The notes under the pieces: model-generated
The model's database searches: none
Told to the model about the DNA's origin: nothing
Seen by the model: the letters and a program-made list of their open reading frames with translations, nothing else
Position numbers and translations under genes: made by a program
Shown: positions 30,694 to 30,768 of the stretch, piece by piece
Position numbering within the stretch: position 1 is the stretch's first letter
Layout: each line of letters opens with the position of its first letter
From: Escherichia coli
GTDB taxonomy: Bacteria; Pseudomonadota; Gammaproteobacteria; Enterobacterales; Enterobacteriaceae
DNA length: 64,000 bases
Assembly (NCBI RefSeq): GCF_003334765.1
Contig: NZ_QOWT01000001.1
Strand: one strand, 5' to 3'

Positions 30694-30703
30694 AATATTA
30701 ACC

Positions 30704-30726
30704 ACTTTAGTTACAACATACTTATT
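30704..30726 (-). promoter_or_regulatory. TerB replication terminator site (Tus-binding), in the tus promoter region
   Basis: minus strand reads AATAAGTATGTTGTAACTAAAGT, the 23-bp Ter consensus. Confidence 0.85.
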
Positions 30727-30768
30727 TTATAGCACAGTCGTGGTGACTTGACCATCGTGCGCGTAGTG

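Follow-up and report, generated by a model that had tools for sequence, protein, structure and literature searches.

The window analysed here, a 64-kb stretch (64,000 nt) of Escherichia coli DNA, carries on its minus strand the gene tus (29764..30693), an ORF that starts with ATG and encodes the DNA replication terminus site-binding protein of 309 aa. Upstream of tus and co-oriented with it lies the sensor kinase gene rstB (30769..32070, minus strand), and fumC (28364..29767, plus strand) converges on tus, with a 4-bp overlap at their 3' ends; both neighbors were placed from their ORFs and annotation. The rstB stop codon occupies 30771-30769 and tus opens with the ATG at 30693-30691, which makes the segment 30694-30768 exactly the rstB-tus intergenic region, 75 bp long. 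The encoded Tus is identical at 309 of 309 residues to the proteins in PDB entries 1ECR, 2EWJ, 2I05 and 2I06, the last of which is the locked-complex entry. A longer ORF of 313 aa with a GTG start, beginning inside the site described below, was rejected as an artefact, the real start being the ATG that gives the 309-aa protein. An Rfam scan of the whole window at gathering thresholds gave no matches.

The intergenic region contains a single striking element. Read on the minus strand, 30726..30704 is AATAAGTATGTTGTAACTAAAGT, which is identical at 23 of 23 positions to TerB, a replication terminator of 23 bp that is bound by Tus (Ter position n is found at 30727-n in the window). The site is asymmetric, with a G at position 6 (G6) and an intact GTTGTAAC core at positions 10-17, and the cognate Tus is encoded by the adjoining ORF of the same genome. 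The initial annotation had described an exact minus-strand match to the Ter consensus; the match is there, but the string is that of TerB itself and not a consensus of Ter sites. It had named a mismatch in the invariant core as the finding that would count against it, and since GTTGTAAC shows none the identification stands unrefuted. Its distance of 11 bp to the tus ATG needs rewording: 10 nt intervene (spacer GGTTAATATT, 30694..30703, minus strand), so that the last Ter base, position 23, lies at -11.

To put this match on a quantitative footing we used a PWM made from the published sequences of TerA-J, that of TerB having been checked here. TerB reaches 32.5 bits, compared with 22.9 to 32.8 for the ten known Ter sites and 13.4 for the runner-up 23-mer in the window. 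The PWM scan found no second Ter site within the 64 kb, and TerB is also the sole match when up to 3 mismatches are allowed. We give no credence to the idea that the match is a chance or relic sequence without function: about 2e-9 exact 23-mers are expected in the window (~128,000/4^23), 100 dinucleotide-preserving shuffles yielded 0 TerB matches at up to 3 mismatches, and the core is invariant across genera (see below) with diverged flanks.

Weaker resemblances do occur elsewhere in the window. Nine matches to the 14-nt core with one mismatch were found (3.5 expected); as all of them score at most 13.4 bits on the full 23-bp model, they are not Ter sites. The second-best Ter-like 23-mer, CGTACAGATGTTGTAACCATTGT (55116-55138, plus strand, 13.4 bits), lies inside ynfE. 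Its ATGTTGTAAC core is intact, but position 6 is A instead of G and position 18 is C; most likely the gene matches the core here by chance.

The window corresponds to 1.65-1.716 Mb of the K-12 chromosome, and its positions w convert as K12 = 1714952 - w. In NC_000913.3 TerB thus occupies 1684226-1684248 (+) and tus 1684259-1685188 (+). A 1.5-kb query around TerB matches E. coli K-12 MG1655 and many natural strains at 100% identity. Of 5,426 complete E. coli genomes, 5,425 carry the TerB segment, and the genes annotated there are always rstB, tus and fumC. The RefSeq record of K-12 carries no feature for TerB, which makes it useful to recognize the site from sequence: it serves as an annotation anchor, showing that the window covers the TerB-tus locus of an E. 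coli chromosome.

The idea that the window is a plain reverse complement of MG1655 was rejected, since it lacks IS2E, differs by 16 SNPs and has a 1,039-bp deletion. The 16 single-base differences are spread over ~62 kb (window 1-63403), and none falls in the tus-TerB-rstB segment examined. The deletion, relative to K-12, removes NC_000913.3 1693868-1694906 and fuses uidA to uidB at window 21084|21085: uidA (beta-glucuronidase, 19920..) loses its 3' end and uidB (..22062) its 5' end, and the endpoints are blunt, without microhomology. This junction is contiguous in none of the 5,426 complete E. coli genomes, the closest flanks being at least ~740 bp apart, and a strain carrying it would be GUS-negative. 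At the right end, 63404-64000 fails to align to MG1655, as the Qin cryptic prophage of that strain is interrupted there by IS2E; the window has the uninterrupted Qin integrase/excisionase/exonuclease region, and ATCC 8739 is among many strains that share this region at 100% identity. Over the 25-kb segment 21085-46000 the window is essentially the same as natural isolates such as HSP425. Judged from these differences, the source is a K-12-like strain and not MG1655. In addition, rsxC contains an internal tandem array at 6896-7417, where self-matches at multiples of 96 bp (87-91% identity) mark 96-bp units.

Within E. coli we compared TerB in five lineages, namely the K-12-like sequence, NRZ88308, Nissle 1917, UTI89 and 042. 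All five agree at G6, at positions 8-23, throughout the 10-nt spacer and at the ATG. Variation is found in the outer 5' part of the site: position 2 (30725) is A or T, and position 7 (30720) is T or G, the B2 and D strains (Nissle, UTI89, 042) reading GGATG. The allele of both Nissle 1917 and UTI89 begins AATAAGGATG and that of 042 begins ATTAAGGATG, and in NRZ88308 one extra nucleotide is inserted immediately 5' of G6. Because these outer positions are polymorphic, the exact match reported above is a match to the K-12-type allele. The other E. coli sites TerA, C, D, E and G share the 23-bp architecture, G6, the GTTGTAAC core and Tus binding, and TerC and TerG carry G at position 7, as do the TerB alleles of the B2 and D strains. 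To our knowledge, TerB is alone among the E. coli Ter sites in being coupled to a gene start and acting as an operator.

We then looked at the same locus in other genera, finding orthologous loci by tblastn of Tus against a plasmid collection that contains misfiled chromosomes. Klebsiella pneumoniae (Tus 70% identical) has TAATAGTATGTTGTAACTAAGGT (29.8 bits) with a gap of 7 nt to the start codon, Proteus mirabilis (51%) has TAATTGTATGTTGTAACTAAATA (26.4 bits) with a gap of 11 nt, and Morganella morganii (43%) has CATTTGTATGTTGTAACTAAAAT (29.1 bits) with a gap of 8 nt. All three sites are co-oriented with tus. In an alignment of the tus-upstream regions of E. coli, Klebsiella, Proteus and Morganella, the 15 columns of Ter positions 6-20 (GTATGTTGTAACTAA; 30707..30721, minus strand) are invariant, including G6, and the flanks of this block diverge among the four genera. 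Gene order is kept as well, rstB-tus-fumC being found also in Klebsiella and tus-fumC in Morganella. In Aeromonas caviae (Tus 36% identical) no Ter site was found upstream of tus. The comparison of Klebsiella, Proteus and Morganella independently reproduces the vicinal-Ter result of PMC8707476.

More distant Tus proteins occur on plasmids: 1,282 plasmids encode homologues with ~29% identity over ~83% of the Tus length, a count for which the misfiled chromosomes are a caveat. PLSDB entries CP125156.1, NZ_OL790811.1, NZ_OL790696.1, NZ_AP026896.1 and others are multi-megabase chromosomes filed as "plasmids", among them Klebsiella pneumoniae (5.37 Mb), Proteus mirabilis (4.08 Mb), E. coli (4.8 Mb) and Aeromonas caviae (4.94 Mb). 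The plasmid homologues, which bear the annotation DNA replication terminus site-binding protein, sit on IncC and other large conjugative plasmids in Klebsiella, Salmonella, Escherichia, Citrobacter, Providencia, Vibrio and more. None of four sampled has an E. coli-type Ter upstream of the tus homologue (best score at most 9.8 bits), so that cognate sites, if any, must differ, and these four plasmids are uninformative on the TerB-tus arrangement. When 120-nt upstream regions were compared (L004 1366-1485 and L005 1381-1500), IncC plasmid pEC4-1b and the Vibrio plasmid pVPS91 shared a conserved block ~30-85 nt upstream of the tus homologue, consisting of ttgcatgatggtctaaa, then TATGTAAC (pEC4-1b) or AATGTAAT (pVPS91), then cAATGA. 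Since the motif of pEC4-1b looks like a truncated Ter core, this may be the cognate site.

Returning to the chromosomal site, its polarity relative to tus is set by the sequence, as had been claimed, and is the same in the three other genera. G6 lies at 30721 on the minus strand, and C(6) is the plus-strand C opposite it. This pair is located in the part of TerB that is nearer to rstB and farther from tus; the G6/C6 end points toward rstB and Ter position 23 toward tus. In K-12 coordinates TerB reads 5'-AATAAG...-3' with rising coordinate, its G6 end at the lower coordinate, at 1.684 Mb. With G6/C6 facing away from tus, TerB is oriented to block the clockwise fork, in line with TerB, C, F, G and J being described as arresting that fork (PMC8707476). 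When the helix is unwound at the non-permissive face, GC(6) is broken and C(6) docks in a pocket of Tus (PMC8707476).

The broader setting agrees with this polarity. Plus-strand GC skew is +0.022 overall and mostly positive in 8-kb windows, which fits normal replication by the counter-clockwise fork, the one that meets TerB on its permissive side. The orientation of TerB fits a fork trap, being permissive to the usual fork and blocking to a fork from the other replichore. The E. coli origin oriC lies at ~3.93 Mb and dif at ~1.59 Mb; by these positions some 80 kb separate TerB from the point opposite oriC. TerC is expected ~75 kb farther in than TerB. The initial annotation had put the window in the replication terminus region, and its location at K-12 1.65-1.716 Mb bears this out for the broad terminus region; the terminus proper is absent, as no GC-skew sign switch, dif or TerC was found within the window. 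TerB thus marks the window as lying inside the replication fork trap and outside its innermost part, and fixes the direction in which forks can pass.

Taken together, the sequence of the element, its uniqueness, position and orientation, the identity of the neighboring Tus and an arrangement conserved across four genera make it almost certain that this is E. coli TerB, acting as a polar replication-fork barrier and as the tus operator. The barrier half draws further on published work for in vivo Tus binding, fork arrest and the C(6) lock. [quoted passage not shown] Fork pausing at TerB in wild-type cells is significant and second only to TerC according to Duggin & Bell, as quoted in PMC8707476 and PMC10331603, and single-molecule work, as summarized in PMC8707476, has about half of the forks that reach TerB from the non-permissive side escaping arrest.

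On this reading the barrier works as follows. A Tus monomer binds the asymmetric 23-bp TerB 10 nt before its own gene. A clockwise fork that has gone past TerC would run through rstA, rstB and TerB in that order (falling window coordinates) and would meet the AATAAG (G6/C6) end first. Unwinding by DnaB would then free C(6) (plus strand, 30721) to enter the cytosine pocket of Tus, giving a locked complex that would halt the fork before it reaches tus. The counter-clockwise fork, the usual replicator here, comes from the tus side, that is, the permissive face, and displaces Tus. Because TerC and not TerB is the innermost E. coli barrier, most forks never reach TerB.

A rival reading is that the site is essentially only the tus operator, with fork arrest here incidental or rarely used and TerC doing the real work. 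The close linkage to the tus start codon (7-11 nt), kept across the four genera, would suit such a site, as would the rank of TerB behind TerC as second in its cluster, and TerB and tus travel together in chromosome rearrangement, for example in strain IAI39. Against this, the wild-type pausing quoted above is significant, species with a type I trap have their tus-adjacent Ter as an innermost barrier, and G6/C6, which matters to the lock rather than to simple binding, is invariant in all nine sequences compared. According to the papers cited, 2D-gel or marker-frequency evidence that forks are arrested here in a Tus-dependent way has already been published. We consider an operator without a real barrier function very unlikely, and retain the dual reading of TerB as barrier and operator.

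No evidence contradicts the identification as TerB, and the weak points lie in the regulatory half. TerB is described as lying within or overlapping the tus promoter region, with Tus autoregulating through it (PMC8707476, PMC8347550, PMC12809603); these papers trace autoregulation to Roecklein et al. 1991 and Roecklein & Kuempel 1992, whose findings are given here as relayed by them. Our own scans support this only in part. A standard sigma-70 scan of 30500-31000 found no promoter over TerB. A relaxed hexamer scan returned a weak candidate matching at 9 of 12 positions, TGGTCA-17-TATAAA, with a candidate -35 at 30749..30754 (TGGTCA, 4/6) located 17 nt upstream of a candidate -10 at 30726..30731 (TATAAA, 5/6), both on the minus strand, the -10 touching and overlapping Ter position 1. 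TATAAA was missed by the standard scan because that scan demands T at hexamer position 6. The relaxed scan also gave an alternative candidate -10, TAAAAT, at 30729-30724 on the same strand. Neither the -35 nor the -10 hexamer is conserved in the alignment with Klebsiella, Proteus and Morganella. The placement of TerB within an autoregulated tus promoter is taken from the literature together with inference, and the weak in-silico candidate agrees with the published statements.

If the candidate hexamers are used, transcription is predicted to start at about Ter positions 7-9, and RNA polymerase and Tus would then compete for the same DNA. On such a model TerB would be the tus operator, covering or lying amid the -10 region, the predicted start and the ribosome-binding site, and bound Tus would exclude RNA polymerase and so keep its own level low and self-limited. 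The autoregulation itself comes from the published work; the exact hexamers, the start and the Shine-Dalgarno overlap described next are our predictions.

The putative ribosome-binding site is a Shine-Dalgarno-like stretch, TAAAGTGGT (30701..30709, minus strand), that matches TAAGGAGGT at 7 of 9 positions and ends 7 nt before the ATG. As TAAAGTGGT consists of Ter positions 18-23 plus GGT, it overlaps the permissive end of TerB. In the same place Klebsiella and Proteus have AAGGTGG and TAAGGT. There is an extended reading, in which the 3' (permissive) end of TerB would double as the tus Shine-Dalgarno and the overlap of barrier, operator and ribosome-binding site would fix the 7-11-nt spacing and the orientation across Enterobacterales, possibly along with a roadblock to transcription from rstAB. 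We regard it as speculative and rather improbable. If true, the triple overlap would be a constraint on Ter evolution that is not known to have been analyzed explicitly, and would refine a textbook system.

The roadblock deserves separate mention. Tus-TerB might also stop, in a polar manner, RNA polymerase arriving from rstAB, thereby insulating tus and protecting the complex from dislodgement. Between the rstB stop and TerB (within 30694-30768) no intrinsic terminator-like site and no hairpin was found, and since rstB is co-oriented with tus, its transcription would meet the non-permissive face first. Mohanty, Sahoo and Bastia (EMBO J 1996) are said to have observed polar arrest of RNA polymerase by Tus-Ter. 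Such a roadblock would be an extra role and not an alternative identity for the site; it is conceivable, with no mention for this locus in the literature surveyed, and we rate it as having hardly any chance of being the explanation. The reading we favor remains TerB as fork barrier and tus operator.

The TerB-tus system is already known, its biology having been established in 1989-1992 and refined up to 2021-2026. Compared with TerB of E. coli K-12, the tus-vicinal Ter site of that chromosome, the element described here has the same sequence, position, orientation and flanking genes, with no difference in the site. The tus-vicinal Ter sites of other Enterobacterales ("Ter1", type I traps, PMC8707476) likewise precede tus by 7-11 nt, are oriented in the same way and keep GTATGTTGTAACTAA unchanged. 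The two kinds of trap differ in what lies further in: in type I species the vicinal Ter is an innermost barrier, whereas in E. coli and Salmonella ("type II") TerC is placed further in than the site next to tus (PMC8707476).
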